Shown one piece after another: positions 3,047-64,000 of a stretch of 64,000 bases of DNA. Source of the stretch: a virus; the IMG/VR virus record IMGVR_UViG_3300020463_000008, positions 67,092 through 131,091 of that record. One strand, given 5' to 3'. Position numbers and translations under genes: made by a program. Each line of letters begins with the position of its first letter. Positions within the stretch are counted from its first letter, which is position 1. The notes beneath the pieces were generated by a model. The model had not been told where the DNA came from, made no database searches, and saw nothing but the letters and a program-made list of their open reading frames with translations.

Positions 3047-3487
3047 TCAGTCAATAACAGATGAATTCCTCAAGTCAGGAACTGAAGTGCCATCTTCTTT
3101 AGTAGTTTCGATATTAATACCGAAGTCCTTCAGTTCCTGGACAAAGTCCACATCTTCCTCGTCTTTTATGACAAACTTTGGTGCTGGTAAACGAGAAACT
3201 CTAATATCATCTGCTTCACGAATCGCCATTTCAGGATCCGCATTTGGAGCAGGAAAGAAATAGATGCCTTTGTCGATCTTGTTAATCTTATAATTCCAGT
3301 TAGGTGTGCCAATTTTAGGAAAGGATTTATCAGCTTCATGTTTTGCTTTCAGCTTAACAATTCCTTCAGTACATTGTTCCAATGTTATTGCACCACCAGA
3401 TGAGAGGTCTGGGTAGATCTCTATCATGTTATCTACCCACCTCTTTTGGAACTTTGTTAGTGAATAATATTCAACTAAGTCTGACAT
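3047..3487 (-). CDS. Hypothetical protein resembling the N-terminal domain of the adjacent AAA ATPase
   Basis: 146 aa ORF overlapping AAA stop by 1 nt; weak pattern similarity by eye. Confidence 0.7.
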   Translation of the reverse strand: MSDLVEYYSLTKFQKRWVDNMIEIYPDLSSGGAITLEQCTEGIVKLKAKHEADKSFPKIGTPNWNYKINKIDKGIYFFPAPNADPEMAIREADDIRVSRLPAPKFVIKDEEDVDFVQELKDFGINIETTKEDGTSVPDLRNSSVID

Positions 3488-4677
3488 TATATACCCTCCG
3501 ATTCAGATGTATATGGATTTCTATCTTCTTCAACCTCTGCTGCTTCAGGAAGTAAATCTTCCCCAGCAGAGATCTTAGAGTAAAGATCTAAGAAAGCCAT
3601 TTTAGTGACTTCATCAAATCTATTCAAGCACAGCTCAATCGCTTTAGCTTCTTTTTTGAAGATAGAGAATGCTCTCACAATGTGAGTCAATCTTCTAGTC
3701 GTAATGTTTTCATCACAACCACCATCATCAAAAGTCTTACGAACAACCTCTGCCCACTTAACTAAGTTAGAAGCAAAGTCACCAGAGTCTTTACACTCAT
3801 AATGGTTAAGAAGATTTTCAACAATCTTCAACTCTGTTTTTTGGTTAGGATAAGGTTGGTTGAAAGTGACAGCAAATCTTTCTAAGAATGCTTCATTAAG
3901 AACATTAGTCCCGATGTATCTACCATCATCAGATCCTTTACCTTTAGTGTTTGCAGTAGCAAAGATGTTAAATCCTTTAGCAGGAGTTATCATTTCATTT
4001 TTTAGTTTGAAATAAAATGGTTTTCCTTCAAGGATAGGTTGTAAACAAAGTAGAGTATTTGCTCCACCAGCATCAATCTCATCAAGAAGAAGTGGAATAC
4101 CAAATCTCATTGCGATAACAACTGGACCTTCAACAATCTCAACATTACCATCAACCAAAGTTTTAGAACCAATCAATTGGTCTTCATCAGTCATAGTATT
4201 AAGATTGACACGAATAAGAGGTTTTTTCTGCTTAGCACAGATTTGCTCAATAGTCGTAGATTTACCATTACCAGTTGGACCAGCAATGTAAGAAGGATAG
4301 AACATACCAGATCTAACAATATGATTTAGATCGGTGTAGTTTCCGAAAGCAACATAGTTAGGATCCACAGCTGGGATTAAACTATCTCTATCCACAGTAG
4401 AAGATAAAGCAGAAGATTTCAAAGGAACCACTTTTGGTGGCACTTCAGTTTCAGCTACAGTATTTGCTACTGGTTTTGTTATAGAACCTCCAGGAATTAC
4501 ATAGAGTGCTGGGGAAGCACCTGCAACTTTGTTTTCCCAGACTATGCCTGGAACTGGAGTACCTGACTTTCTAACAGCCAGAACCTGTGCTTGAGTCATT
4601 TCTTGACTCACTGCAACTTCAGGAAAGAGCTCGTATGCTTTTTCAATAAATGCAGTTTGTTTTGATAAGTTTGTCAT
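3487..4677 (-). CDS. cobS: MoxR/CbbQ-family AAA+ ATPase (phage CobS-like)
   Basis: Walker A GPTGNGKST, Walker B LLLDEID, ATANTKGKGSDDGRYIGTNVLNEAFLERF, ITTRRL. Confidence 0.9.
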   Translation of the reverse strand: MTNLSKQTAFIEKAYELFPEVAVSQEMTQAQVLAVRKSGTPVPGIVWENKVAGASPALYVIPGGSITKPVANTVAETEVPPKVVPLKSSALSSTVDRDSLIPAVDPNYVAFGNYTDLNHIVRSGMFYPSYIAGPTGNGKSTTIEQICAKQKKPLIRVNLNTMTDEDQLIGSKTLVDGNVEIVEGPVVIAMRFGIPLLLDEIDAGGANTLLCLQPILEGKPFYFKLKNEMITPAKGFNIFATANTKGKGSDDGRYIGTNVLNEAFLERFAVTFNQPYPNQKTELKIVENLLNHYECKDSGDFASNLVKWAEVVRKTFDDGGCDENITTRRLTHIVRAFSIFKKEAKAIELCLNRFDEVTKMAFLDLYSKISAGEDLLPEAAEVEEDRNPYTSESEGI

Positions 4678-7227: not shown

Positions 7228-7328
7228 GGTTCATGTTGACTGCCATATGGACTTAACCATATAATCATACCCACCGCAAACATTGCGATCGCTAATCCTA
7301 AGATTAAAGGTTTTAAATCATTCATCAT
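7197..7328 (-). CDS. Small membrane protein (43 aa, MMNDLKPLILGLAIAMFAVGMIIWLSPYG...)
   Basis: Manual translation; start overlaps the VWA gene stop; one TM helix. Confidence 0.6.
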   Translation of the reverse strand: MMNDLKPLILGLAIAMFAVGMIIWLSPYGSQHEPWEMMQWLYR

Positions 7329-9685
7329 TATGCTACCCTTTCTACGAATGTACTCATTAATACTTTCGATTGTCTATTTTGTTTTAGACCTTTAGAGAAC
7401 TGCCTAGCAATCTGGGCAGCAGACTTTTGACCATCGATAGAAATCTCAGCATTTGCTGGATTAAGTTTTTTAATATCAAGAAAGAACATCTCGTCACGAC
7501 CAGTTCCTTCAGAGAAAGATGCCCAGCCATTATTTCTACGAATAAGAACTCTAGAAGCATCTCTATCAAATCTATCAGAGTCTTTGATATTATATCTAGC
7601 GAACTCACCAATTCCTTGTTGAGTATTTCTACCAAGGAAATAACCAATAGTAGAAGCACCATATCTTGTTTTAATCATATCAAGATATGCATAGTCATAA
7701 GGAGAGCCACCCATTTCATGTTTGTCAGAGACTTTATAATGTTTCTTAGTCACAGGATCTACAAGAGTATCAACTCGTTTCACACTCCATTTGGTTTCAA
7801 CACCCATGTTTCTTAGTTTCTCATGGTTGCATTGCATACCTCTAGACCATCCTGCTCCATCAGTCAAAGTTATAAAGTTCATTTTATCAATATTATGTTT
7901 TTTGACAAATCTACCAGTATAACCAACAGCAACTTCAAGTGCTTCACTCAAAGGAGTACCAGATAATGCTAACTCACGAGAGTAATGCCATACATGAGAG
8001 TGTAGCATATAACACATACAATCAAAATCTTTTTGGTTCATATCATTAGTAAGAAGCTGGTAATACCACATTTCTTGTCTTTGCATGTAAGCAGTATTTT
8101 CTTCTCTTAGTTTTTCAGCAAACTTTCTCATGATATCTTTTTTACCTTCAGTCAAAGGATCTTTTTCATTATAAGAATTATCATGATTAGAGAAAGCAAG
8201 AACTTCAAAAGGAATATTTACTTTACGACAGAAAGTAGATAATACAATTACTTGCCTGATAGTATCTCTCATAATAGAGTGCATAGAACCAGACCAGTCA
8301 ACCACCATAATGAAACCATGATTTTTATCATCAGAACATACTTGTATTCTTTTAAATAAATCTTCAGACAGTTTATAGTTATATAATTTGTTAGCATTTA
8401 ACTGACCAGACTTAGCAGTTTCAGTACGAGCATATCTTTGAGCAGATTTTTTCATCTCAAACTCTTTTACCATATAATCAATATCAGACTTAATATTGTT
8501 CATGAAGTTATCATAATCTTCTTTATAGTAAGCACCAGATGTAGCACCAAGATAAGGTCGGCACTCATCATATCTGTCAAACATATAGATATAATCGTAA
8601 TGACCTTTATCATTTATAACATGGTCATCACCATTGATTCTATCAAGAACAGATTGTTTAGTGACACACTCAGGATCGTTAGCATCAACTGGGTCACCCC
8701 ACTTATCAGTAGGCTGTCCTTCAGGAATCTTAGTAAGCATATCTAAGATTTGCTTGTAAGTAATAATAGGATCTGTACCATAAGGATATTCAGGAACATC
8801 AAGAGTTCTAAAAATTTTATTATCAAGTTGAGCATGGTCTTCCATACTTTTATCAAGAGCATCCTGAGTAGCTGATTCTAATTCTCTCTCATCAAAAGTT
8901 GGAGGAGTTTCTTCAGCTTGATGCTCACCAGCTCCAGATCTAGACTTAGTATCTTCTTCATCTTTAGCAACAGTCTCTTCTTCATCATCATTTTCTGGAG
9001 CATCGCCTTCTTCATATTCATCATCATCAAAATCATCAGACTCTTGCTCTTCCATTTCTTCTTCATTATCTAAATCATCAAGATCGTTTTGTGCTTCTTG
9101 ATATTGTTCAGCTTTTTTCTCTTCTTCTTTTTTCTTTTTATCACGAGCATACTCGGCTAACTCTTTAGCAAGTGCCACAACCTCATCAAAGTTTTTACAA
9201 GAATCAACTCTAGAAGCAATTGCAAATTCTTCTTTAGAAAATTTGATACCAGACTTAAGACCGATTTTAAAATAAAGATTAATTTTATCAATTAAGTTGA
9301 GAGAGTTTACATCTTTATCACCAATCTGAAAGAAGTCATTATCAGCAAGAAGTTTGTACCCAGCAATAAAGTCAGTACGCAATCCAGGATATTGTTTTTG
9401 AATTAGTTTTTCAATACGAACATCTTCAATAACATTAGCATAATTTTTTACTAGTTTATCATCAAATGCTTTATCATTCATAATTTTTTTAGCAGGAGTA
9501 TGTAGAGCATGACCGACCTCATGACCAATCATAAGATTTTCTACATTTTCATCTAAGTTTACGAATGTTGGTAGAGTCAATGTTCTACCCACTACATCGA
9601 ATGATGCAGTTGGAACTTTAGCACGAACGACATGGACATCCTCGGTGCTAAGTAATTTTGCTAATACATCTTTTGAATTATTCAC
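7328..9685 (-). CDS. CobT-like protein: N-terminal HExxH peptidase-like domain, acidic linker, C-terminal VWA (MIDAS) domain
   Basis: GHEVGHALHT, NVIEDVRIE, VDWSGSM MIDAS, SGTPL, LTDG; usual partner of phage CobS-like AAA. Confidence 0.85.
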   Translation of the reverse strand: MNNSKDVLAKLLSTEDVHVVRAKVPTASFDVVGRTLTLPTFVNLDENVENLMIGHEVGHALHTPAKKIMNDKAFDDKLVKNYANVIEDVRIEKLIQKQYPGLRTDFIAGYKLLADNDFFQIGDKDVNSLNLIDKINLYFKIGLKSGIKFSKEEFAIASRVDSCKNFDEVVALAKELAEYARDKKKKEEEKKAEQYQEAQNDLDDLDNEEEMEEQESDDFDDDEYEEGDAPENDDEEETVAKDEEDTKSRSGAGEHQAEETPPTFDERELESATQDALDKSMEDHAQLDNKIFRTLDVPEYPYGTDPIITYKQILDMLTKIPEGQPTDKWGDPVDANDPECVTKQSVLDRINGDDHVINDKGHYDYIYMFDRYDECRPYLGATSGAYYKEDYDNFMNNIKSDIDYMVKEFEMKKSAQRYARTETAKSGQLNANKLYNYKLSEDLFKRIQVCSDDKNHGFIMVVDWSGSMHSIMRDTIRQVIVLSTFCRKVNIPFEVLAFSNHDNSYNEKDPLTEGKKDIMRKFAEKLREENTAYMQRQEMWYYQLLTNDMNQKDFDCMCYMLHSHVWHYSRELALSGTPLSEALEVAVGYTGRFVKKHNIDKMNFITLTDGAGWSRGMQCNHEKLRNMGVETKWSVKRVDTLVDPVTKKHYKVSDKHEMGGSPYDYAYLDMIKTRYGASTIGYFLGRNTQQGIGEFARYNIKDSDRFDRDASRVLIRRNNGWASFSEGTGRDEMFFLDIKKLNPANAEISIDGQKSAAQIARQFSKGLKQNRQSKVLMSTFVERVA

Positions 9686-55588: not shown

Positions 55589-58264
55589 TTATGTTAATAA
55601 ATCCCACTTCAAGGTCGACGAATCGAAATTGTAAAGGGTTGTATCAAATTCTACACTGTCCGCATCAAAAGTGAATGCGATATCATCAAAGGTAAATGCA
55701 GGATCCTGTGTAGAGAATCTCAAACCTGATGCTGGTTGTTTAAATATACCAATCTCAGATTCGATCGCATAAGAAACTTGTGTATATGGACTATTTATAA
55801 TACTTGCAACTGTGACTTCAGAAAAATCTTTAATTTGTGTATTTCCATACTGTGAATAGTATCCTGAGTTTGGTTCTGGGTAAGTCAAACGAGGATCATC
55901 TTCAAGTCCATTAGTAGTAAAGGCAGGTGTGCCAGTGCTATTAGAATATTTAGTACCTGCTAAAGAGGGTTTAAAAGTGAACTTGTATCTATCAAGGTCT
56001 ATTAAATTAAACCCAGCTCGTCTTACCGAGCCATCAAATGGTGATGAACTTCTAATTGGTAGCTGTACTATCGGAGCTCTAGCAGGTCTTTGCATATCAT
56101 AAGCAACTCTATTAGCAATTTCTAATCTCTCATCATGTTCAACAGCTAGAGGAGATAGTTCTAATAGGTTTACTTCTGCTGGTGTTAAGTTAGGGAACTC
56201 TATCTCACTAACAAAGTCAGAAGTTTGTATTCTTAAGTTGAGTACAGTATCAACTAGTGCTTCTAGATTAATTGTAAATATTTGTTTTGCTAAGTCAGGT
56301 CTATGTTCATTAGAAGTATCAGGTCTGTATGCACCAATGGCTTTTAACTTTCCATCAACAAGCATCTTAATTAGTAAGTCTACAACATACCTTTTCTTTT
56401 GTAGGTCATTAATATTACCCATGACTGCAGCAAGAATAGTTTGTATCTGTACTTCTCCAAATAATGCTAATCCTATTGGGTGTAATAATTTTTTAACAGC
56501 ATCTCTGTACTGGTCAATCGACTGACCAACCTGAACAACATATGAGAAGTCTTGATAGAATCTAGAGTCTTGAATTTTTTTAGATGACTCTGAAATAAAT
56601 CCATCGGCAGTTAAGTATCCACCCAAGCCAGTACCTGAAGCACCAACTGATGTTGTAATGTTAGGATAGTTAATATCAACAATCTCACCACTACCACCTG
56701 ACGATGAAGTCACAGTATTATTATCTGCGAAGAAACCTGAAGACTCTTGAACGAAAGTATCTCTAGTTTCAGTTATCATTCTTCCACTTCCATCTTCAAG
56801 TGCGTATGGTAAAAATACATTTGGGTTATCTACTTTTAATACTTGTTTATTCGTATCAAATATATTTACTGTTCCTGTACATATTTGTTGGTTCTCTACT
56901 AACATGTCATCACCTGTTTCTAATTTAATTCCACCTGAACCATCTTCTATTGAAAGTGATTGCGCACTTAGTGTGACTGTGTCTCCCTGATTAAATGAAC
57001 CTGTAATATTTTGTAGAACAGCAATAGCTGGAACCGAAGCGATTGGTGGAACTTTATAGTCAATACCAAATCTAGATAATTCTATCTTTCTTAATTTACC
57101 AATCGTTGTTGAAGTAGCAACAACTTTACCACCTGCTCTATTTCCAGTTGTAGGTAAACTTAGAGAAGGAAGTCTATCGTAAAAAGCTCCAGGAGTTAAA
57201 ACTGTAATTGATTTGATTGCTCCCTCATCAGATGCTTCTTGTAAATCTATATCAAAATTATTTTCTTGTAGTAGTGTTCCTCCACCACCTGCGTTTCCTG
57301 ACTCTAGTGATACTGAGTCTCTATCAATATTAGTAATAGAAGCACGAGCAGATAATTGTGCGTTAGATCCAGGTCCACCTGTTCCTGTATTGTTAAAAAT
57401 TATTTCGTCATTTATTTTATAACCAGATCCTGCAGTTTCAATAGTCACTCCAGTAATACCACCAGAGTCAATCTCAGTTATCTCACCTCTTGCTTCACTT
57501 CCTGTTGGTGATACAATTGTAATTAAATCTCCAATATCATAATACGATCCACCTTGCTGAACATTAAATCCTGTAATAATTGAAACAACAGTTGCAGTAA
57601 TTACATTTTGAGTTGATGGTGCAGTTGCTGTTATAGTTCTAACTATAACTTCATCCTCAGATAAAAATGTTCCAGTAAATGATTCGTCATCTATTGTTAA
57701 ATCTGTGACAGTCTTAGAACCTATTTGAGTTGATACTGCATTCTCAACGAAAGCTGTGACAGTTCTAAATGTACCATCACCCACTGGTTGTGTTTGAGAT
57801 ATAGTAGCACCAATTAATTCTAATGGCGAACCACCTGTTGCATCAGTGACACGAATAACTGTATCAGCTGACCAAGTTCCTGACGATGGTCTTAGTAGTG
57901 CTGTCTTTGGAAAAAATAATTCTGCGTCTTCATTAAATAGAATACGAAATAAAAATTTGTAAGATTGTTCTGTACCTTTAGATCTATAGATATCTTGAAT
58001 TCTTTTTGCTAGTAATCTTTTATCAGTAAGTACACCTTGTGGTATAGGTTGCATAATCTCACTTTTAAAATGGTCAATAAACATATCAACTGTTGTATCA
58101 ATGTCACGAATGTCTTCTAATTGAGATTGTGGCAAGTAAGTACCTTGCATCCATTCATAGTATGCTTCAAGGAATGCTTTAAAGTTTGTGCTGTCGTCCG
58201 TGATAAAATCAGGTATCTGATTTCCAACTACAGTTGAGACTTTTGCTTTAACAGAACTTGGCAT
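55589..58264 (-). CDS. gp7: Baseplate wedge gp7
   Basis: FLEAYYEW, YRSKGTEQS, KIQDSRFYQDFSY, LHPIG. Confidence 0.88.
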   Translation of the reverse strand: MPSSVKAKVSTVVGNQIPDFITDDSTNFKAFLEAYYEWMQGTYLPQSQLEDIRDIDTTVDMFIDHFKSEIMQPIPQGVLTDKRLLAKRIQDIYRSKGTEQSYKFLFRILFNEDAELFFPKTALLRPSSGTWSADTVIRVTDATGGSPLELIGATISQTQPVGDGTFRTVTAFVENAVSTQIGSKTVTDLTIDDESFTGTFLSEDEVIVRTITATAPSTQNVITATVVSIITGFNVQQGGSYYDIGDLITIVSPTGSEARGEITEIDSGGITGVTIETAGSGYKINDEIIFNNTGTGGPGSNAQLSARASITNIDRDSVSLESGNAGGGGTLLQENNFDIDLQEASDEGAIKSITVLTPGAFYDRLPSLSLPTTGNRAGGKVVATSTTIGKLRKIELSRFGIDYKVPPIASVPAIAVLQNITGSFNQGDTVTLSAQSLSIEDGSGGIKLETGDDMLVENQQICTGTVNIFDTNKQVLKVDNPNVFLPYALEDGSGRMITETRDTFVQESSGFFADNNTVTSSSGGSGEIVDINYPNITTSVGASGTGLGGYLTADGFISESSKKIQDSRFYQDFSYVVQVGQSIDQYRDAVKKLLHPIGLALFGEVQIQTILAAVMGNINDLQKKRYVVDLLIKMLVDGKLKAIGAYRPDTSNEHRPDLAKQIFTINLEALVDTVLNLRIQTSDFVSEIEFPNLTPAEVNLLELSPLAVEHDERLEIANRVAYDMQRPARAPIVQLPIRSSSPFDGSVRRAGFNLIDLDRYKFTFKPSLAGTKYSNSTGTPAFTTNGLEDDPRLTYPEPNSGYYSQYGNTQIKDFSEVTVASIINSPYTQVSYAIESEIGIFKQPASGLRFSTQDPAFTFDDIAFTFDADSVEFDTTLYNFDSSTLKWDLLT

Positions 58265-58272
58265 TTATTTTT

Positions 58273-60120
58273 TTACCTTACTTTTGTGTGTACATAATCA
58301 GCAGAAGAAGTTGATTCTCCTGATGCTACTTTATCAGCTATTGCTGAGACAACGATATCTTCATTAGCAATACTTGCTAATTGGTTTCGTACAGAAACTA
58401 CATCATAAGAAGATGGCTCAATACTAATATTGATTGTTCCATTTGATAATGTAGTTCCACTTATACTTAAATTGTTTAGTGTGATTAATCCAGTTTCATA
58501 GTTTACAGTTCCTACAGTTGAAGCACTATAAACTTTTTCATTTCCACCTGTTAAGTAGTAAGTGTAAATATTTCCAAGAGCATCATCCTCTAAGAAGTAA
58601 ACTAGATTTGAACCACTTAGTGTAAACCCAGTTGAAGATATTGCTACATATGCTCTCAATGACTTTGCGTCATTATAGATTGGGTTGTTAATTGGTAGTG
58701 TATAAGTTGTTGCTACATTTAATGTAGGAGTTAAAACTTTTTTAAGATTAATTTGTGTAGAGTTAGAAATTATTGATACATCACTTGCATCAATCTCTTT
58801 ACTTAATGCAGAGAATCTAAATACAGAATCAAACTTATTTAAGTTTGCTGTATTAAAGTTTTGTACAACAGCATTAGCTTGTGATGCAATAGTTTCTTTT
58901 GCTTTACTTGTCACATTTTGATTATAGTAAACTGTTGATTGAACAATTATTCCTAGTGTATCAGGATCTACTATTTCAGGAATAACTGATACAAGGTTTT
59001 TAGATTTAATAATGTTGTTCGTAATATTTAATTTTGTAGATTCAGTAAGAGTAGTTCCTGACTTTGGCTTAATAGAAATATATGCTTTTCCATAAACTGG
59101 TGGATCGTTTTCTTCACCACCCCAAACTGATATCGCATCTACATTATCATAGAGCTGTGGTAGTATGACTTTGTAATCATCTGCAGTCACTGCTCTATTC
59201 TGTGCTGCGAAACTTTTTGGTGCATTAAATTTAATTGAGTCAATACTTTCTTGGTCTGCTCCACCACTTGCAGCTGAAGTAGTTGTAATATTTACTGTAG
59301 AAGATCCTAGACCTCCACCAGTGTATGTAAATAACTTAGAACCATTTGCAGCAGTTAATGAAGATACACAATATGAAACTTTTACTGTAGCACCATTTGG
59401 TGGAGCAAAGCCAACAGCTCCATCACCAAACTCTATCTCATATAATTTATCTTCAACTTCTTTCGTAAAGAATACTCTAGAAGATGGTCCAGCATTTACA
59501 ATGTTATCAACTAAGGTATAACCCAAGTATGCTGCATTGTTTGGATCTTCTTGAACTGAAACTCCAAGTGAAGTCATATCTGCGTTTGCATTCGCAACAA
59601 GATATCTAGTATTACTTGCAGCAGTATAAGTATTCGTCACCATAGTTCCTTCAGTAATTACAACTGCTGGGAATGTATAAGTGTTAGTGTTAGATTTACT
59701 AGCAGTGTATGCACTAGTAGTTTGAAAAGTATAAGCTGTTCCATCTACTGTAGATGTAAAGGTAGAAGCAGTTGGTAAAGTAAGTGTGTCAGGATTTCCT
59801 GAAACATTTGATACGACAAGTTGTATTGTAGCTGTAGGACATATAGCAGACTTCGGAGTATAACCTAACATCTTTCCAATACTTACAACTGATTCTCTTT
59901 TTGCAGCAGAATCTAAAAACATTTCATTTACTGACATGTTATGATACAAAGCATTATAGTGTGTGTTGTATGCAAGTACATCTAACAGAACAGAAATCCC
60001 TGCTCCTTCAAAATCAAAATCAGAAAACTGTGATTGTCCTCTAAGGTAATTTTTTAGATTTGTTTTGATACCATCAAAGTCTAACTCAGCAACTTTAATT
60101 CTTCTGTTTTGATCTGCCAT
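58273..60120 (-). CDS. gp6: Baseplate wedge gp6
   Basis: LDFDGIK, LAYNTHY, FGDG, QNRAVTADDY, WGGEEN. Confidence 0.96.
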   Translation of the reverse strand: MADQNRRIKVAELDFDGIKTNLKNYLRGQSQFSDFDFEGAGISVLLDVLAYNTHYNALYHNMSVNEMFLDSAAKRESVVSIGKMLGYTPKSAICPTATIQLVVSNVSGNPDTLTLPTASTFTSTVDGTAYTFQTTSAYTASKSNTNTYTFPAVVITEGTMVTNTYTAASNTRYLVANANADMTSLGVSVQEDPNNAAYLGYTLVDNIVNAGPSSRVFFTKEVEDKLYEIEFGDGAVGFAPPNGATVKVSYCVSSLTAANGSKLFTYTGGGLGSSTVNITTTSAASGGADQESIDSIKFNAPKSFAAQNRAVTADDYKVILPQLYDNVDAISVWGGEENDPPVYGKAYISIKPKSGTTLTESTKLNITNNIIKSKNLVSVIPEIVDPDTLGIIVQSTVYYNQNVTSKAKETIASQANAVVQNFNTANLNKFDSVFRFSALSKEIDASDVSIISNSTQINLKKVLTPTLNVATTYTLPINNPIYNDAKSLRAYVAISSTGFTLSGSNLVYFLEDDALGNIYTYYLTGGNEKVYSASTVGTVNYETGLITLNNLSISGTTLSNGTINISIEPSSYDVVSVRNQLASIANEDIVVSAIADKVASGESTSSADYVHTKVR

Positions 60121-60129
60121 CTTTTTTTC

Positions 60130-60288
60130 CTATCTTCCTTGTCCCCTATATTTTTTATAGGAAGCTCGTTTACTTTTATTCATTGTCGACATGCCAATCT
60201 TGACTTTTCGACTTCTGCCACCAGTTCCTTGACTCGTGGACTTCTTTGTAGTTGTATGTGCTACAAAGCTCTTTGCCATTTTAGCCAT
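60130..60288 (-). CDS. Small basic protein (52 aa) ending KKYRGQGR
   Basis: Manual translation; GGAGA RBS; not in ORF track. Confidence 0.75.
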   Translation of the reverse strand: MAKMAKSFVAHTTTKKSTSQGTGGRSRKVKIGMSTMNKSKRASYKKYRGQGR

Positions 60289-60306: not shown

Positions 60307-60699
60307 TTATCTAGTTCGCTCCAATATCAAACTCACATCAATTGGAGTAAATGTATTTCTTATTTTAAATTTTATCTTTACATCTACAGATACATTATCA
60401 AGTCTGTAGTTGATTAGAACATCCAGTAGTTCCACTCTTGGTTCAAAGTTCGTAATCGTATCAGTAATAGTCTTACGAAGTATCTCTTTTGTCATAGGAG
60501 TAGCTGGTTCAAACAATAGTGAACGAATCGTACTTCCTATTTCAGAATGAAAAGGTCTCTCAAAGTTTTGAGTAAGCACCAAGTTCTTTACTGATTGCTT
60601 CACAGCATTCTCGTCATACTTAAATCCTATATCTCCAGTCACTGGATGTGCAGTGAAGTTTAAATCTAAGTCAGAAAATTGTCTAGTATTACTTGGCAT
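60307..60699 (-). CDS. gp25: Baseplate wedge gp25
   Basis: DLDLNF..HP, ERPF, NFEPRV, LERTR. Confidence 0.95.
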   Translation of the reverse strand: MPSNTRQFSDLDLNFTAHPVTGDIGFKYDENAVKQSVKNLVLTQNFERPFHSEIGSTIRSLLFEPATPMTKEILRKTITDTITNFEPRVELLDVLINYRLDNVSVDVKIKFKIRNTFTPIDVSLILERTR

Positions 60700-60718: not shown

Positions 60719-63061
60719 TTAATCAGAACTGGTCCCTGGAAGTGTAGATGCCCAAATATTTGTTCCCTGAGTATTACTTGCAAAGGTCGAAGTCCCTGGA
60801 GCGAACATCTTAAAGATTAATTCTATCTGATTATTAAACCTAATGTTGTTTGCATAACTCTCAGATCCATCGTTTGTTCTATATGCTGTGTAAGTAGTAT
60901 AGATCGGATCTCCGTCTCCACCAAACCAGCATAGAATTCCAAGTGGTCCACAGTCTGTTCCTGTTTGTACTCGATAACTGTATTGTTCATAGTAGTCACC
61001 ATCTTTTATCTTAGCACCACCTGCTCCTCCTGGGATTAGCTGACTTCTACTTGCTCCGCAGTCTATCTTAATATGTACATAGCCACCCAGTGTTTGAGAT
61101 ACTCCTGTTTCAAAAGTCACTCGGCTATCTGTTTGTAAATCTACTCCACCATTTCCTGAACCATCAGGCATTATATCTGTACTCTGCCAAAGCGATCCCC
61201 AGTTTACATCCTGATTAAAGAATGTATTATTGTTATTACCAGTAGCAATACTGAATGTTTTCGGATTTACTCCAAAGTATGTAAAGTCTTTTGTTTGAGC
61301 TGGGCGAGTATCAACTACACCATTGCGTTTAGTTCTAAAGAACCAGAGGTGCCATGTAGATCCACAGTTGGTAGTATAAGGTTGCCCATTCACATGTTGT
61401 TTATTTCCATAGGTAGAATAATTATCATCACCAGCAACAGCAGGAGTCTGAGTGTATGCTCCATATAAATGATAAGGTCCAGTTGCAGCTTGATATGAAT
61501 AGTCAGTAGCAGGTGTCGTAGAGTAATTATGTGGGAAAGCAACTTGTGATATACCTTTAGAGCCACCTTGGAATGCTGCAGTTGCTACACTGTTATAATT
61601 GTAAGTATCAAACTGGTGACCAGTACTTGCCATACTATTTGTCAAGTTAGGTTTATCTCCAGCTGGTTGGTTTCGTATCATCTGTCTTTCATGATTATAG
61701 TTTAAGTCCGAAGAGTTTACTGCACCAACTAAGCTATTAATATCTTCATGTATAAATCCCCATACATAACCCATGCCCTCGACATAAACTAGATTCATTC
61801 CATTTAAACCCCATGCTTGGTTCTGTCCTATCGTACCTGTGATTGTTCCACCCATAGGAGTATCGCCATAGGCACCAGCATAGGCATAAGGGTATGTGGC
61901 TAGATTGCCTGTCGTGTATCCTTGGGGTAATACTGGATCGTTGGCTCTTTGATTATTACTTAATGACACATCTTCAAATCCATAAACACCTGCTGCCTTT
62001 AAAGGTCTGGCATAAACGAAAGCACTCTCAGTTTTCACCGAGCTATCTGCGATCGTAAAGTTAAGAGTTGCGGATCCATTGTCAAGTGCTACATTCATAA
62101 CTTCACTTCCTTCAAGTCGAGTAAAGTCTTCAGCGATTTTAAAATCAAAAGCATCTCCTGCTACTCCACTTCCTAGATCTCTTAAAGTAAAGGTAGAAGA
62201 AAAAGGAATCTGATTAATTGTTGTCTGCGTGCCTTGATAGTTGGCTATGTATTCTATGTCTACTTCGTCAAAGTTGCCTTGACCTGCTGATATAGTAAAG
62301 GGATAAGTATCGCCAATAATACCAGAGCCGACAGTCAGCTTAAAGTTGCCCACAGTTCCTTCCTGTGGAGTAAGAGTAGTTGTACCAAATAAACTAAAGA
62401 CTGGGTTGTTAGAAGTATCAGCTACAGCAATCGCCAAACTCTCATTCCCAGTAAAGGGTGTTTGCGTTGTGACTGTAATCGTAAAGTTCTCAGTGCCCTC
62501 TGTGACTTGGTCGGCAGCAAATTCAAATGCTTTAGTTTCCTGAGAGCCAACTACAAAGTTTCCAGTAAGAGGAGAAGAGGTTGCTGCAACTATATCGCCA
62601 GCAGTAATACCTGTGACCACATAAGGTACATTCGTGCCAGCTGGTAAATTCTGAGTAAGTAAACTGATGGTAGCAATATCACCCTCGTTGCAAGTATTCC
62701 CCACGGATGAAGTTAATATGTAAACAAAGGTCACACCACCTACATCTATATTCGTATCTTCTCCAGCTGTCTCACCACCACCACTGCTGAATACATTCGG
62801 ACTGCCTTCTGCAACTTGCGTGCAAGTCGGATCGCCGACTCTACCGATTCTTTTATTATTCGCAAAGACAGTAAGGTCACCCTGACTGATAGGTTGAGCA
62901 TGTCCAGGACAAGGAGTCCCAGGAAGTAAATGCCCTGTGTTTAAATCACCCTCTCGTGATACACCTATGCCATTGGCTTTCACATCGTCACTACCCTGTG
63001 CTCGTGTCATTGCCGAGCAATGCGTGACATCTGCGTCGCCTATTCTCGTGACTGCTGGCAT
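60719..63061 (-). CDS. PAAR (gp5.4-like) spike-tip protein with long C-terminal extension
   Basis: First ~93 aa: RIGD..H C...REGD...H...RVGD..C..GSPNVF; then Calx-beta-like repeats and an unknown domain. Confidence 0.85.
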   Translation of the reverse strand: MPAVTRIGDADVTHCSAMTRAQGSDDVKANGIGVSREGDLNTGHLLPGTPCPGHAQPISQGDLTVFANNKRIGRVGDPTCTQVAEGSPNVFSSGGGETAGEDTNIDVGGVTFVYILTSSVGNTCNEGDIATISLLTQNLPAGTNVPYVVTGITAGDIVAATSSPLTGNFVVGSQETKAFEFAADQVTEGTENFTITVTTQTPFTGNESLAIAVADTSNNPVFSLFGTTTLTPQEGTVGNFKLTVGSGIIGDTYPFTISAGQGNFDEVDIEYIANYQGTQTTINQIPFSSTFTLRDLGSGVAGDAFDFKIAEDFTRLEGSEVMNVALDNGSATLNFTIADSSVKTESAFVYARPLKAAGVYGFEDVSLSNNQRANDPVLPQGYTTGNLATYPYAYAGAYGDTPMGGTITGTIGQNQAWGLNGMNLVYVEGMGYVWGFIHEDINSLVGAVNSSDLNYNHERQMIRNQPAGDKPNLTNSMASTGHQFDTYNYNSVATAAFQGGSKGISQVAFPHNYSTTPATDYSYQAATGPYHLYGAYTQTPAVAGDDNYSTYGNKQHVNGQPYTTNCGSTWHLWFFRTKRNGVVDTRPAQTKDFTYFGVNPKTFSIATGNNNNTFFNQDVNWGSLWQSTDIMPDGSGNGGVDLQTDSRVTFETGVSQTLGGYVHIKIDCGASRSQLIPGGAGGAKIKDGDYYEQYSYRVQTGTDCGPLGILCWFGGDGDPIYTTYTAYRTNDGSESYANNIRFNNQIELIFKMFAPGTSTFASNTQGTNIWASTLPGTSSD

Positions 63062-63252
63062 CGTAGTTTTAACTCCTCTAATTTAAATGGAAAGGTTGCG
63101 AGATACTCATGGTTATGATTGCCCTCGTCATCCAGCTCCGATGGTTTAAATAAAATAATCTCAATAATATTATCAGGTATCTTATCATAGTCCGCAAAGA
63201 TCTTAACCTCTTTCGGATTCTCTTTCGTAATTACTTCGAATCTACCCCTCAT
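63040..63252 (-). CDS. Hypothetical protein upstream of PAAR
   Basis: YDKIP..I.F.P...H pattern; GAGGAG RBS before ATG 63252 (track start 63276). Confidence 0.7.
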   Translation of the reverse strand: MRGRFEVITKENPKEVKIFADYDKIPDNIIEIILFKPSELDDEGNHNHEYLATFPFKLEELKLRCQQSRE

Positions 63253-63433
63253 CAATCTCTCCTCGAATAAACTCAATCATCTCATCGCTGATATCATATA
63301 CAGTCGGATCGTCCTTACTCTCAAGTGCAGCTAACAGCTTCTGCTTGTCCTCGAGCGAAGCAGACTTATCAATTACCTCTCTCTGCCACCAGCTCTTAAA
63401 ATGATTTAATGTTGCTTTCATATTGTTTTCCAT
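63242..63433 (-). CDS. Hypothetical protein
   Basis: 63 aa ORF overlapping both neighbours. Confidence 0.6.
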   Translation of the reverse strand: MENNMKATLNHFKSWWQREVIDKSASLEDKQKLLAALESKDDPTVYDISDEMIEFIRGEIDEG

Positions 63434-63777
63434 TGTTCTCTTATCTTGGTTGCACTAATTGCCTGCGTGGCTTCGTCCAACACTTCTTCCTCAATCGTAT
63501 AACCCACTCCACGACCATAAGTAATATGCGTGATGTTGGGTACACCCTGTATCTCGTATTCCCGACCATACTCAAACCCAGCCAAACTTAATGCTCCTCG
63601 GATTCTCGCAGTTCTATCTCGTATCGTTAAGGGATTCTCATCAGTCCCATCTTCTTCACGCAATAATATTATAACTTGACCAGTTTTGGAAAGTGCTCTC
63701 TTAAATAACTCTGTATGCCCATCATGCCAGGGTTGAAACCGACCAAGGAGCTGTGTAGTTGCTTTGCTTCTATCCAT
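63418..63777 (-). CDS. HxGH-class nucleotidyltransferase (cytidylyltransferase-like)
   Basis: GRFQPWHDGH, NPL, YGRGVGY, ISATKIR. Confidence 0.88.
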   Translation of the reverse strand: MDRSKATTQLLGRFQPWHDGHTELFKRALSKTGQVIILLREEDGTDENPLTIRDRTARIRGALSLAGFEYGREYEIQGVPNITHITYGRGVGYTIEEEVLDEATQAISATKIREQWKTI

Positions 63778-64000
63778 TGTAATACCTCTATATTACTTGT
63801 AGTGGGATCCTCCCACAGTTGATTAGTGTCCTCGTACTTCGAAGACTCTCTTGTGTTCATCCATATAGTATAAGATGCTTTGACCAAACCTCGTAAATCA
63901 TTTGTAGGACAAACAAAGTCAAGGATACCAAAGGGCATATTCCGCATACGATTTGCCTGAGTCACTCTGCCCTCATAACTAAAATCCCAATCGCCATAGT
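63669..64000 (-). CDS. Adenylyl-sulfate (APS) kinase-like protein, 5' end outside window
   Basis: Frame open to the edge: DWDFSYEGRVTQANRM...DFVCPT...IWMNT...YEDTN..WEDP. Confidence 0.75.
   Translation of the reverse strand, partial: YGDWDFSYEGRVTQANRMRNMPFGILDFVCPTNDLRGLVKASYTIWMNTRESSKYEDTNQLWEDPTTSNIEVLQWIEAKQLHSSLVGFNPGMMGIQSYLREHFPKLVKL

Follow-up and report, generated by a model that had tools for sequence, protein, structure and literature searches.

Why does a phage gene for the tip of the central spike continue for hundreds of codons beyond the point at which such genes normally stop, and what could a module of this size do there? Descriptions of phage PAAR tips usually present them as minimal, free-standing cones, and PAARs that bear cargo tend to be regarded as a T6SS speciality: passages of a jumbo-phage survey refer to PAARs "unfused to any effector domain" (PMC7824862), and passages of a second source state that T6SS PAARs "can bear effectors covalently attached" (PMC12407873). 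The 64,000-nucleotide stretch of viral DNA analysed here (the window) encodes a PAAR protein of 780 aa. A sequence-only reading of the window had described it as a PAAR tip fused to a large extension that would be a central receptor-binding or enzymatic module and a possible host-range determinant.

The PAAR-fusion gene is assigned to an uncultured marine T4-like myovirus from an abundant and widespread clade, and DNA near-identical to the gene was found in 14 runs from 8 studies (2014–2025). The 131-kb record to which the window belongs lacks psbA, which speaks weakly against cyanobacteria as hosts. The gene occupies the same slot as short PAAR genes, between gp5 and gp25–gp6 (Table 1), and the genes downstream of it (gp25, gp6, a gp7-like protein and gp8) constitute a T4-like virion module. 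The order 78-aa ORF, long PAAR, gp25, 52-aa ORF, gp6 is common to the window's own locus (L002) and to L004, L005, L008, L009 and L010. The 78-aa ORF, which is 80–94% identical and keeps its position in L002, L004, L005 and L008–L012, yielded no family match. Long forms of gp25 occur in relatives, and their N-terminal extension is unrelated to that of the PAAR. The T4-type late promoter (TATAAATA) has one match in the window, at 55792, away from the gene (chance expectation 8.1), and is thus uninformative. Several large fibre-like proteins are also encoded in the window.

Table 1. Features of the PAAR-fusion locus (window coordinates; residues are those of the 780-aa protein)
Feature	Position	Strand	Details
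Whole PAAR-fusion gene	60719..63061	-	780 aa, ATG start; stop codon 60719-60721; single intact ORF with 0 internal stops (ORF list)
Upstream 78-aa ORF	63040..63276	-	overlaps PAAR start by 22 nt; conserved clade partner
PAAR cone domain, residues 1-95	62777..63061	-	PHROG_281, NF033420, 4jiv_D, alignment with short PAARs
Gly-rich linker, residues 96-108	62738..62776	-	variable length; identity 0.13-0.52, lowest block of N-terminal half
Repeat 1, residues 109-222	62396..62737	-	Calx-beta-like beta-sandwich module; similarity to repeats elsewhere
Repeat 2, residues 223-345	62027..62395	-	divergent copy of repeat 1; hhalign and P0038
Orphan C-terminal domain, residues 346-780	60722..62026	-	435 aa, Gly/Thr/Asn/Tyr-rich, 4 Cys
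Hypervariable cassette, residues 692-727	60881..60988	-	between invariant 'KDGDYY' and 'YR.NDG.E'
gp25 baseplate wedge / sheath-initiator gene	60307..60699	-	directly downstream; Pfam GPW_gp25 E 8.6e-12; phrog_261 E 1.9e-43
gp6 baseplate wedge gene	58273..60120	-	phrog_219 E 1.4e-175; Pfam Gp6-like domains

In the clade member L008, a gp5 gene encoding Gp5_OB, Phage_lysozyme, Gp5_trimer_C and Gp5_C repeats is located ~1.2 kb upstream, so a spike exists to be capped and wall cutting is already supplied. In the window's record, gp5 was recovered neither with Pfam Gp5_OB and Gp5_C (the Gp5_OB control was also silent) nor by tblastn with Melnitz gp5 proteins; as this record (73% complete) breaks off ~0.9 kb upstream of the PAAR-fusion gene, the absence of gp5 there is uninformative.

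Judged by sequence, residues 1–95 are a complete and canonical cone of the PAAR spike-tip family. They matched PHROG_281 ('PAAR motif', E 5.1e-16, residues 13–96) and NCBIfam NF033420 (E 2.6e-8, residues 1–90 on profile positions 1–91 of 94), the latter a T6SS equivalog whose cut-off of 124 bits lies far above the score of the cone. Pfam PF05488 scored 24.7 bits by hmmscan, just below its 27-bit cut-off, and 36.9 bits in the genome search with neighbours in frame, where it was counted as above the cut-off, and a profile search matched the PDB PAAR chain 4jiv_D at E 0.007. The cone aligns end to end with phage PAARs of 93–99 aa (alignment A3) and in this respect is the same as the minimal tips of the T4 gp5.4 kind, with identities of 67–74% to 75 short metagenomic PAARs and 38–41% to the proteins of HTVC008M (99 aa) and Melnitz (98 aa); the short PAAR of P-HM1 has 112 aa. 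PAAR cones have a conserved His/Cys metal site near the apex and bind the blunt tip of a trimeric beta-helix, with one cone per trimer. H14 and C51 are invariant in nine long and short PAARs (A3), and H14, C15, H44, C51, H54 and C80 are invariant within the family (alignment A1).

Unlike the minimal tips, the window protein is eight times longer, with a module of ~685 aa past the normal stop that is found only in the window's clade. The frame passes 'GSPNVF' (codon 95, window 62777–62779) into 'SSGGGETAGED', whereas the short PAARs of relatives stop at the same point, with 'GSPNVFAG(G)' followed by a stop. The comparison of gp5.4 lengths suggested by the sequence-only reading gave a divided result: clade members keep the long form, but 75 of 80 related metagenome loci have a PAAR of 91–105 aa ending exactly where that of the window continues. 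The fusion is clade-specific. Within the family, 37 full-length or near full-length clusters keep the frame (602–803 aa, with 67–98% identity, and 67–97% over extension residues 100–780), a PAAR domain being precomputed in 33 of them, and the frame is retained in the four complete DNA copies available besides the window's own, on the independent contigs L004, L005, L008 and L010. The proposed covalent joining of tip and extension therefore holds, as one 780-aa frame conserved across the 37 clusters, and the arrangement that would have spoken against it, a stop after the PAAR with a separate gene downstream, is not that of the clade. Both cone and extension are under purifying selection, with dN/dS values of 0.13–0.29 for the cone, each of the two repeats and the C-terminal domain (three pairs, dS 0.5–1.1) and of 0.22–0.47 in the last 53 residues of the C-terminal domain (three pairs). 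A stop lost near 62780 had been raised as a concern; positions 62777–62779 are crossed, free of indels and stops, by contigs of three independent DNA studies and by one contig of an oligo-dT RNA library. The contigs of this RNA library (X15) account for 14 of 30 bins and extend over the junction, but such libraries can contain DNA. No stand-alone homologue of the extension was found among 1.84 billion representative proteins.

The extension begins with what had been read as a GGG linker and two Calx-beta/Ig-like repeats; the linker and the repeats stand, but the label corresponds to a remote, sub-threshold likeness. In the linker, P0002 has a 16-aa insertion (A1). Repeat 1, which has seven strands in a low-confidence AlphaFold2 model, is 35–46% identical to repeats in S8 peptidase, LamG, FG-GAP, cupredoxin, RTX or Gly_rich_2 proteins, hosts that suggest extracellular or fibre-type contexts for the module. 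A profile–profile comparison of residues 105–222 with residues 222–345 (hhalign) gave E 0.031, with 22% identity over 102 columns, and in alignments with P0038, a protein of many repeats, the two fall on consecutive units, indicating that they are real but very divergent. The Pfam search for Calx-beta (PF03160) in the query repeats gave no match at E ≤ 5. Sub-threshold Calx-beta matches (E 5.4e-6 to 7.4e-3, 16.7–26.9 bits versus a cut-off of 27) were obtained for six of the eight homologous repeat proteins scanned and fall on the 'D..TEG.E.F' half of the repeat; in P0060, the matching stretch falls within the second HSP of its alignment with the query repeat. P0040, which has the precomputed Pfam label GP38, matches the repeat module only (residues 109–217) and not the head, and gave no match in a fresh Pfam scan. 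Neither the repeat nor the head domain occurs in any other ORF of the 131-kb record.

The head corresponds to the ~440-aa Tyr/Gly/Asn-rich region with several Cys of the earlier description, which was accurate: the last 435 aa comprise 12.4% G, 10.3% T, 8.5% N and 7.1% Y, with the four Cys at positions 566, 668, 704 and 711. No relatives of this domain outside its own family were found among the 1.84 billion representative proteins, residues 341–780 matched no family in Pfam at E ≤ 5 or in NCBIfam and PHROGs at E ≤ 1, and a tblastn search with the whole 780-aa protein over 50,697 phage records gave matches to residues 1–96 only. Searches by tblastn, with PDB profiles and among the protein representatives revealed no sequence relative among known receptor-binding domains. 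The AlphaFold2 models of the full-length protein (35 sequences, mean pLDDT 32.3) and of residues 341–780 (43 sequences, mean pLDDT 31.2) are both unusable, making a fold search meaningless, and the best score with ESM Atlas features for residues 341–780 (0.80) was reached by shuffled proteins a third of the time. A likeness of residues 637–740 to acetylcholine-binding protein (PDB profile search, E 0.1–0.65) was not significant, and an internal duplication of the head, between residues 384–464 (TYPYAYAGAYGDTP) and 523–604 (GPYHLYGAYTQTP), had a suggestive look but was rejected (hhalign E 0.15). The extension as a whole is acidic and, according to a low-confidence model, beta-rich; conservation is strong over most of its length, with column identity averaging 81%.

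The hypervariable cassette has a mean pairwise identity of 0.15–0.22, versus 0.8–0.96 in its flanks. There are at least five mutually unrelated cassette types, which differ by indels and unrelated sequence. On the tree of the flanks, the six labelled types are polyphyletic, requiring 12 changes against a minimum of five, and the type found in the window requires at least four, forced by branches with SH-aLRT ≥ 95; this tree was inferred by a quick method with SH-aLRT as its only support measure, and recombination may have affected the flanks as well. Between the window protein and the 98%-identical P0001, 9 of 18 differences fall inside the 36-residue cassette (Fisher p 1.2e-8), whereas seven of eight other close pairs sharing a cassette type have zero differences in it, a pattern of discrete types and not of continuous diversification. 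The cassette is also the only segment with a pLDDT of 56–68, as a beta-hairpin, in both AlphaFold2 models. These patterns point to a mosaic segment, with cassettes swapped among lineages by recombination. An origin in a diversity-generating retroelement was rejected: blastn of 60850–61020 against the 131-kb record found no template repeat (self only, the next best match being 20 nt), no reverse transcriptase was found among the 44 window ORFs scanned, and the types differ by indels and unrelated sequence.

We consider the chances to be about even that the extension, tethered to the spike tip as a monomeric module, serves in receptor recognition and is a determinant of host range. By homology, a single copy of the cone would cap the blunt end of the trimeric gp5 beta-helix, and a flexible Gly-rich tether leaving its natural C-terminus would lead, through two Calx-beta-like beta-sandwich spacer domains, to the 435-residue head, predicted to be beta-rich. 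The monomeric module would hang below the centre of the baseplate as a surface-recognition device or central receptor-binding protein, and the beta-hairpin cassette, in its several recombining versions, would make the specific contact, placing or triggering the needle over the target and helping to set host range. We infer the presence of the protein in the virion, its position under the baseplate, its binding and its role in host range. The placement of the cassette between invariant flanks and its apparent exchange among lineages provide indirect support for the host-range-determinant idea, although hypervariability can alternatively result from host-defence pressure or from an unconstrained loop. 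T4-like phages normally recognise their hosts by long and short tail fibres and, with the large fibre-like proteins of the window, there is no need for a further receptor binder; in mechanical terms, a piercing tip also seems an awkward place for bulky cargo. A more specific proposal, which we advance tentatively and hold to be somewhat short of an even bet, is that the needle itself recognises the host: the PAAR cone would be a three-to-one adaptor for one receptor-binding protein of unseen fold, and a plug-in hairpin cassette, traded among co-occurring marine lineages, would pick the surface molecule.

Three known systems bear on the receptor-recognition reading. In T5, pb5 on pb4 is one monomeric receptor binder of ~650 aa ending a trimeric central spike or fibre, and the window protein would be like it in its working if that reading is right; unlike the window's phage, T5 has a non-contractile tail with no PAAR adaptor, and tblastn of the 780-aa protein gave no T5 match. 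The T-even adhesins gp37/gp38 have short hypervariable segments between conserved flanks that are shuffled by recombination, and the cassette is likewise hypervariable between conserved flanks, but theirs sit on long tail fibres. The third is orf205w of the T4-like phage RB43, a tip protein of ~690 residues on a gp5-like spike that, according to passages of PMC12407873, was seen as extra cryo-EM density. This density shows that a bulky spike tip is tolerated. The same passages describe RB43 as having no gene 5.4 orthologue and orf205w as largely alpha-helical (PMC12407873); the window protein, in contrast, keeps a true PAAR cone, and its extension is predicted to be beta-rich.

Alternatively, the extension may be delivered cargo, that is, an enzyme or anti-host payload that rides on the tip and is set free in the periplasm or cytoplasm on contraction, as for T6SS PAAR effectors. 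We regard this as unlikely. The window protein does resemble the specialised ('evolved') T6SS PAAR effectors in having a large domain covalently attached to the cone, and passages of PMC12407873 and PMC8651086 present C-terminal cargo on PAAR as the rule in T6SS; the P2 spike reaches the periplasm (passage in PMC12407873), and the orphan head leaves room for some novel activity. However, the gene belongs to a phage baseplate operon, scans of Pfam, PHROGs and NCBIfam brought up no catalytic or toxin family, and the 780-aa protein has neither a prePAAR motif nor a transmembrane segment (its highest Kyte-Doolittle score over 19 residues is 1.08). The lysozyme domain already present on the gp5 of a clade member and the acidic, probably beta-rich nature of the extension also argue against a payload, and the spacer repeats and hypervariable, recombining cassette, which set this cargo apart from that of the T6SS effectors, are more in keeping with surface recognition than with a conserved active site. 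The option of an enzymatic module, left open by the sequence-only reading, thus finds no backing in the family searches, and in L008 the gp5 protein has a lysozyme domain of its own.

We think it slightly less likely still that the extension has a non-specific structural or trigger role. It would then plug or space the region beneath the baseplate or sense contact there, either lending stability to the spike or linking membrane contact with contraction of the sheath, and the cassette would be an unconstrained or defence-evading loop. According to passages of PMC12407873, T4 gp5.4 is dispensable for particle assembly, affects infection efficiency and is required on deep-rough LPS mutants, suggesting that it is penetration and not recognition that tip proteins modulate, and the extension is mostly conserved, as a structural part should be. 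Nevertheless, an unconstrained loop would drift and not form discrete, internally conserved, swapped types, and the lack of the extension at 75 of the 80 related loci argues against a general mechanical need. Finally, the idea that a normal 95-aa PAAR gene runs into a downstream gene through a lost stop, a chimeric assembly or pseudogene decay accords with short PAARs being the norm among relatives, but it is already refuted, with hardly any probability left, by the frame kept in 37 clusters and four complete copies, by the low dN/dS on either side of the junction, by the DNA and oligo-dT RNA library contigs that cross it intact and by the lack of any stand-alone homologue of the extension.

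In a widespread marine phage clade, then, the piercing tip bears a large cargo that has evolved in the manner of a specificity determinant. Should the receptor-recognition reading be confirmed, a central monomeric recognition device would have been added to the T4-type baseplate, the cassette type would serve as a sequence marker for phage–host matching in ocean metagenomes, and there would be a new protein fold to solve. If true, this would be a myovirus counterpart of T5 pb5, built on the T6SS-style logic of cargo on PAAR.

The spike-tip gene of this virus encodes a PAAR cone covalently joined to a conserved, clade-restricted module that ends in an orphan head with a recombining hypervariable cassette. 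An uninterrupted 780-aa frame (ORF list; ATG start, no internal stop) confirms the sequence-only reading of a PAAR tip continuing in one frame into a long extension. To judge from profile matches, residues 1–95 make up a whole PAAR cone (PHROG_281, E 5.1e-16; NCBIfam NF033420, E 2.6e-8, profile positions 1–91 of 94; solved PAAR 4jiv_D, E 0.007); the Pfam PF05488 match was slightly below the cut-off in hmmscan and rose above it once neighbouring stretches were included. By sequence and genomic place, the protein belongs to the PAAR tip family; it would work like the specialised PAAR effectors of T6SS without being one of them. The match to the stand-alone short PAARs of relatives (alignment A3) spans Met1 to GSPNVF; the short PAARs stop after the AG(G) that follows, and the 780-aa protein reads on (SSGGGETAGED). 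This junction (codon 95, window 62777–62779) is the spot at which a lost stop, near 62780, had been suspected.

That suspicion is contradicted by the frame of the family, by independent contigs, by dN/dS and by DNA spanning the junction. A search with the extension against 5.8 billion proteins returned 37 clusters with the same architecture (602–803 aa, 67–97% identical), 33 of them with a precomputed PAAR domain. Four independent metagenome contigs carry the gene whole and with an unchanged gene order: L004 (797 aa), L005 (800 aa), L008 (797 aa) and, at 789 aa, L010. On L003, L006, L011 and L012 the copy is truncated where the contig stops. L009 probably duplicates contig L005, and L002 matches the window exactly. 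In comparisons with L004, L005 and L010 (dS 0.5–1.1), dN/dS was 0.13–0.18 for the PAAR domain, 0.16–0.27 for the repeats, 0.22–0.29 for the bulk of the head and 0.22–0.47 for its last 53 residues, so that purifying selection acts on every part in this frame. Near-identical DNA occurred in 14 runs from 8 studies; in 3 of these studies, contigs cross the junction with no indel, and the substitutions they contain alter three amino acids without creating a stop. The junction is likewise covered by a 243-nt contig of an oligo-dT RNA library; this is no proof of transcription. An artefactual origin of the fusion is, for practical purposes, excluded.

The fusion is clade-specific. A metagenome scan with two N-terminal PAAR peptides yielded 514 relatives; an ORF survey covered the best 80. 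The long form was present in five of these 80 loci, and gp25 and gp6 were 84–86% and 86–88% identical to those of the window in the three long-form contigs reaching these genes (L008–L010). The other 75 of the best 80 encode a PAAR of 91–105 aa, 67–74% identical to residues 1–94, followed, where the genes are present, by gp25 and then gp6 (28–51% and 35–68% identical to those of the window; 35–53% for gp6 once short contig-end pieces were set aside). No extension-like ORF was found in these 75 loci (blastp, 1e-5). The PAARs of phages HTVC008M and Melnitz have 99 and 98 aa, and tblastn matches in GenBank phages were confined to residues 1–96, none of the 75 GenBank records matched reaching further.

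Four relatives (L043:333-1529, L022:1269-2558, L071:364-1563 and L080:313-1515) have a gp25 of 398–429 aa next to a short PAAR, with an N-terminal extension of ~290 aa, unrelated to that of the window's PAAR and giving a He_PIG Ig-like match in L043 and L080. The region between PAAR and gp25 seems to be a slot that collects extra modules. In L013, L034, L035, L066 and L077, 0.6–1.6 kb of inserted sequence lies between gp25 and the gene for the short PAAR; in most other loci this distance is <0.4 kb, often within 50 nt.

The PAAR-fusion gene comes first in the baseplate block within a T4-like virion module; past gp8 lie giant structural proteins, then the neck, sheath, tube, portal and capsid genes. 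The window is the final 64 kb of a 131,091-bp IMG/VR virus record, estimated to be 73% complete, in which psbA was not found. Even the nearest cultured phages are only remotely related: gp6 shares 44.5% identity with that of Pelagibacter phage HTVC008M, 43% with that of Methylophilales phage Melnitz and 37–39% with those of cyanophages, and the capsid protein shares 66% with that of Melnitz and 63–64% with those of cyanophages and HTVC008M. The spike gene, gp5, was not found in this record, whose contig ends ~0.9 kb upstream of the PAAR-fusion gene. Clade member L008 encodes gp5 ~1.2 kb upstream; this protein is at least 917 aa long and has Gp5_OB, Phage_lysozyme, Gp5_trimer_C and Gp5_C repeats; the clade therefore has a canonical lysozyme-bearing beta-helical spike. 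Two overlapping ORFs between gp5 and the PAAR gene (L008:2859-3350 and 3242-3601 in that contig) could represent one gene that has been split or frameshifted.

Features of the PAAR-fusion protein and of its surroundings
Feature	Window position	Strand	Residues	Remark
PAAR-fusion gene	60719-63061	-	1-780	
Gly-rich linker			96-108	variable; follows PAAR cone
Repeat 1			109-222	~115-aa module
Repeat 2			223-345	~115-aa module
gp25	60307-60699	-		directly downstream of PAAR-fusion gene
52-aa, very basic ORF	60130-60288	-		between gp25 and gp6; phrog_17967, E 1.5e-9; 77-94% identical within clade; 49-50-aa homologue upstream of PAAR gene in other relatives
gp6	58273-60120	-		downstream, after 52-aa ORF
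gp7-like wedge protein, 891 aa		-		after gp6
gp8		-		after gp7-like wedge protein
Giant virion protein, 2447 aa	46753-54096	-		downstream of gp8; phrog_358, DUF4815
Giant virion protein, 1831 aa	37220-42715	-		downstream of gp8; phrog_5838
785-aa protein	7328-9685	-		phrog_459 'peptidase'; no Pfam or PDB sequence match; matches at ~30% identity in 464 phage records, chiefly of cyanophages
Overlapping ORFs upstream of PAAR gene	63418-63777; 63669-63998	-; 		match N- and C-terminal halves of phrog_10255 'kinase', cytidylyltransferase-like part included

The two repeats are hardly similar to each other (hhalign E 0.031, 102 columns) and align to consecutive repeats of the related protein P0038. 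Repeat 1 is 35–46% identical to repeats of proteins that also carry S8 peptidase, LamG, FG-GAP, cupredoxin, RTX or Gly_rich_2 domains. The repeats had been described as Calx-beta/Ig-like; both are present, and a remote likeness to Calx-beta shows in homologues, six of eight giving sub-threshold Calx-beta matches over the half containing D..TEG.E.F. The repeats of the protein itself had no Pfam match, and we therefore term them Calx-beta-like rather than members of Calx-beta.

G, T, N and Y are abundant in the last 435 residues, an acidic region with four cysteines, much as initially described. HMMER against 1.84 billion representative proteins revealed no relatives of this head beyond its own family (a single full-length representative plus five fragments), and no match was obtained in Pfam, PHROGs, NCBIfam or the ESM Atlas. 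Neither the repeat module nor the head occurs in another ORF of the 131-kb record. Two AlphaFold2 runs gave no usable fold (mean pLDDT 32.3 and 31.2). With the family profile, residues 637–740 (~60842–61153), which include the hypervariable hairpin, gave weak, non-significant matches (E 0.1–0.65) to 17 acetylcholine-binding protein sequences.

Mean identity in the family alignment is 81%, the exception being residues 692–727, where pairwise identity falls to 0.15–0.22 between the invariant KDGDYY and YR.NDG.E. At least five mutually unrelated versions of this cassette exist, 29–41 aa long, and that of the window has two cysteines (704 and 711). On a tree of the rest of the protein (quick method, SH-aLRT only), six labelled types require 12 changes versus a minimum of 5, and at least four changes of the window's type are forced by well-supported branches. 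Nine of the 18 differences from the 98%-identical P0001 fall within the 36 cassette residues (Fisher p 1.2e-8); seven of eight other close pairs sharing a type had no cassette differences. The pattern is one of discrete cassettes swapped through recombination, with a certain amount of change inside types. A DGR origin was rejected: the 131-kb record contained no template repeat, and indels set the types apart. The cassette hairpin was the sole segment of moderate confidence in both poor AlphaFold2 models (pLDDT 56–68). Lesser variable patches occur in the head at residues 400–413, 459–481, 497–522 and 603–612, with indels in some lineages.

Full-text searches of articles outside subscription journals, main texts only, brought up no paper on a phage PAAR fused to a module of receptor-binding type or to a hypervariable one. 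Jumbo-phage PAARs are described in PMC7824862 as stand-alone and unfused. According to PMC12407873, RB43 has a larger tip protein (~690 residues) that is non-PAAR, largely helical and visible by cryo-EM, and T4 gp5.4 is needed on deep-rough LPS mutants and dispensable for T4 particle assembly.

The module had been proposed to be a receptor-binding or enzymatic unit. The observation stands and the interpretation is partly supported, surface recognition being favoured by the evolutionary pattern of the cassette and by the extracellular or fibre-type company of the repeat elsewhere. Further support comes from the 780-aa protein, in which no enzyme signature, prePAAR motif or transmembrane segment was found, and from gp5 already supplying lysozyme. 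Against recognition stand the lack of a usable fold prediction, the lack of homology between the module and any receptor binder, and the complete complement of fibre-like genes that the window also encodes. The main rival is delivered cargo in the style of T6SS, which we consider unlikely. A non-specific structural or trigger role ranks after delivered cargo and seems slightly less likely still. We suggest, giving it an even chance, that the module acts in surface recognition: it would sit on the spike tip, under the centre of the baseplate, carried by a flexible tether with a pair of beta-sandwich spacers, and the cassette would make the specific contact.
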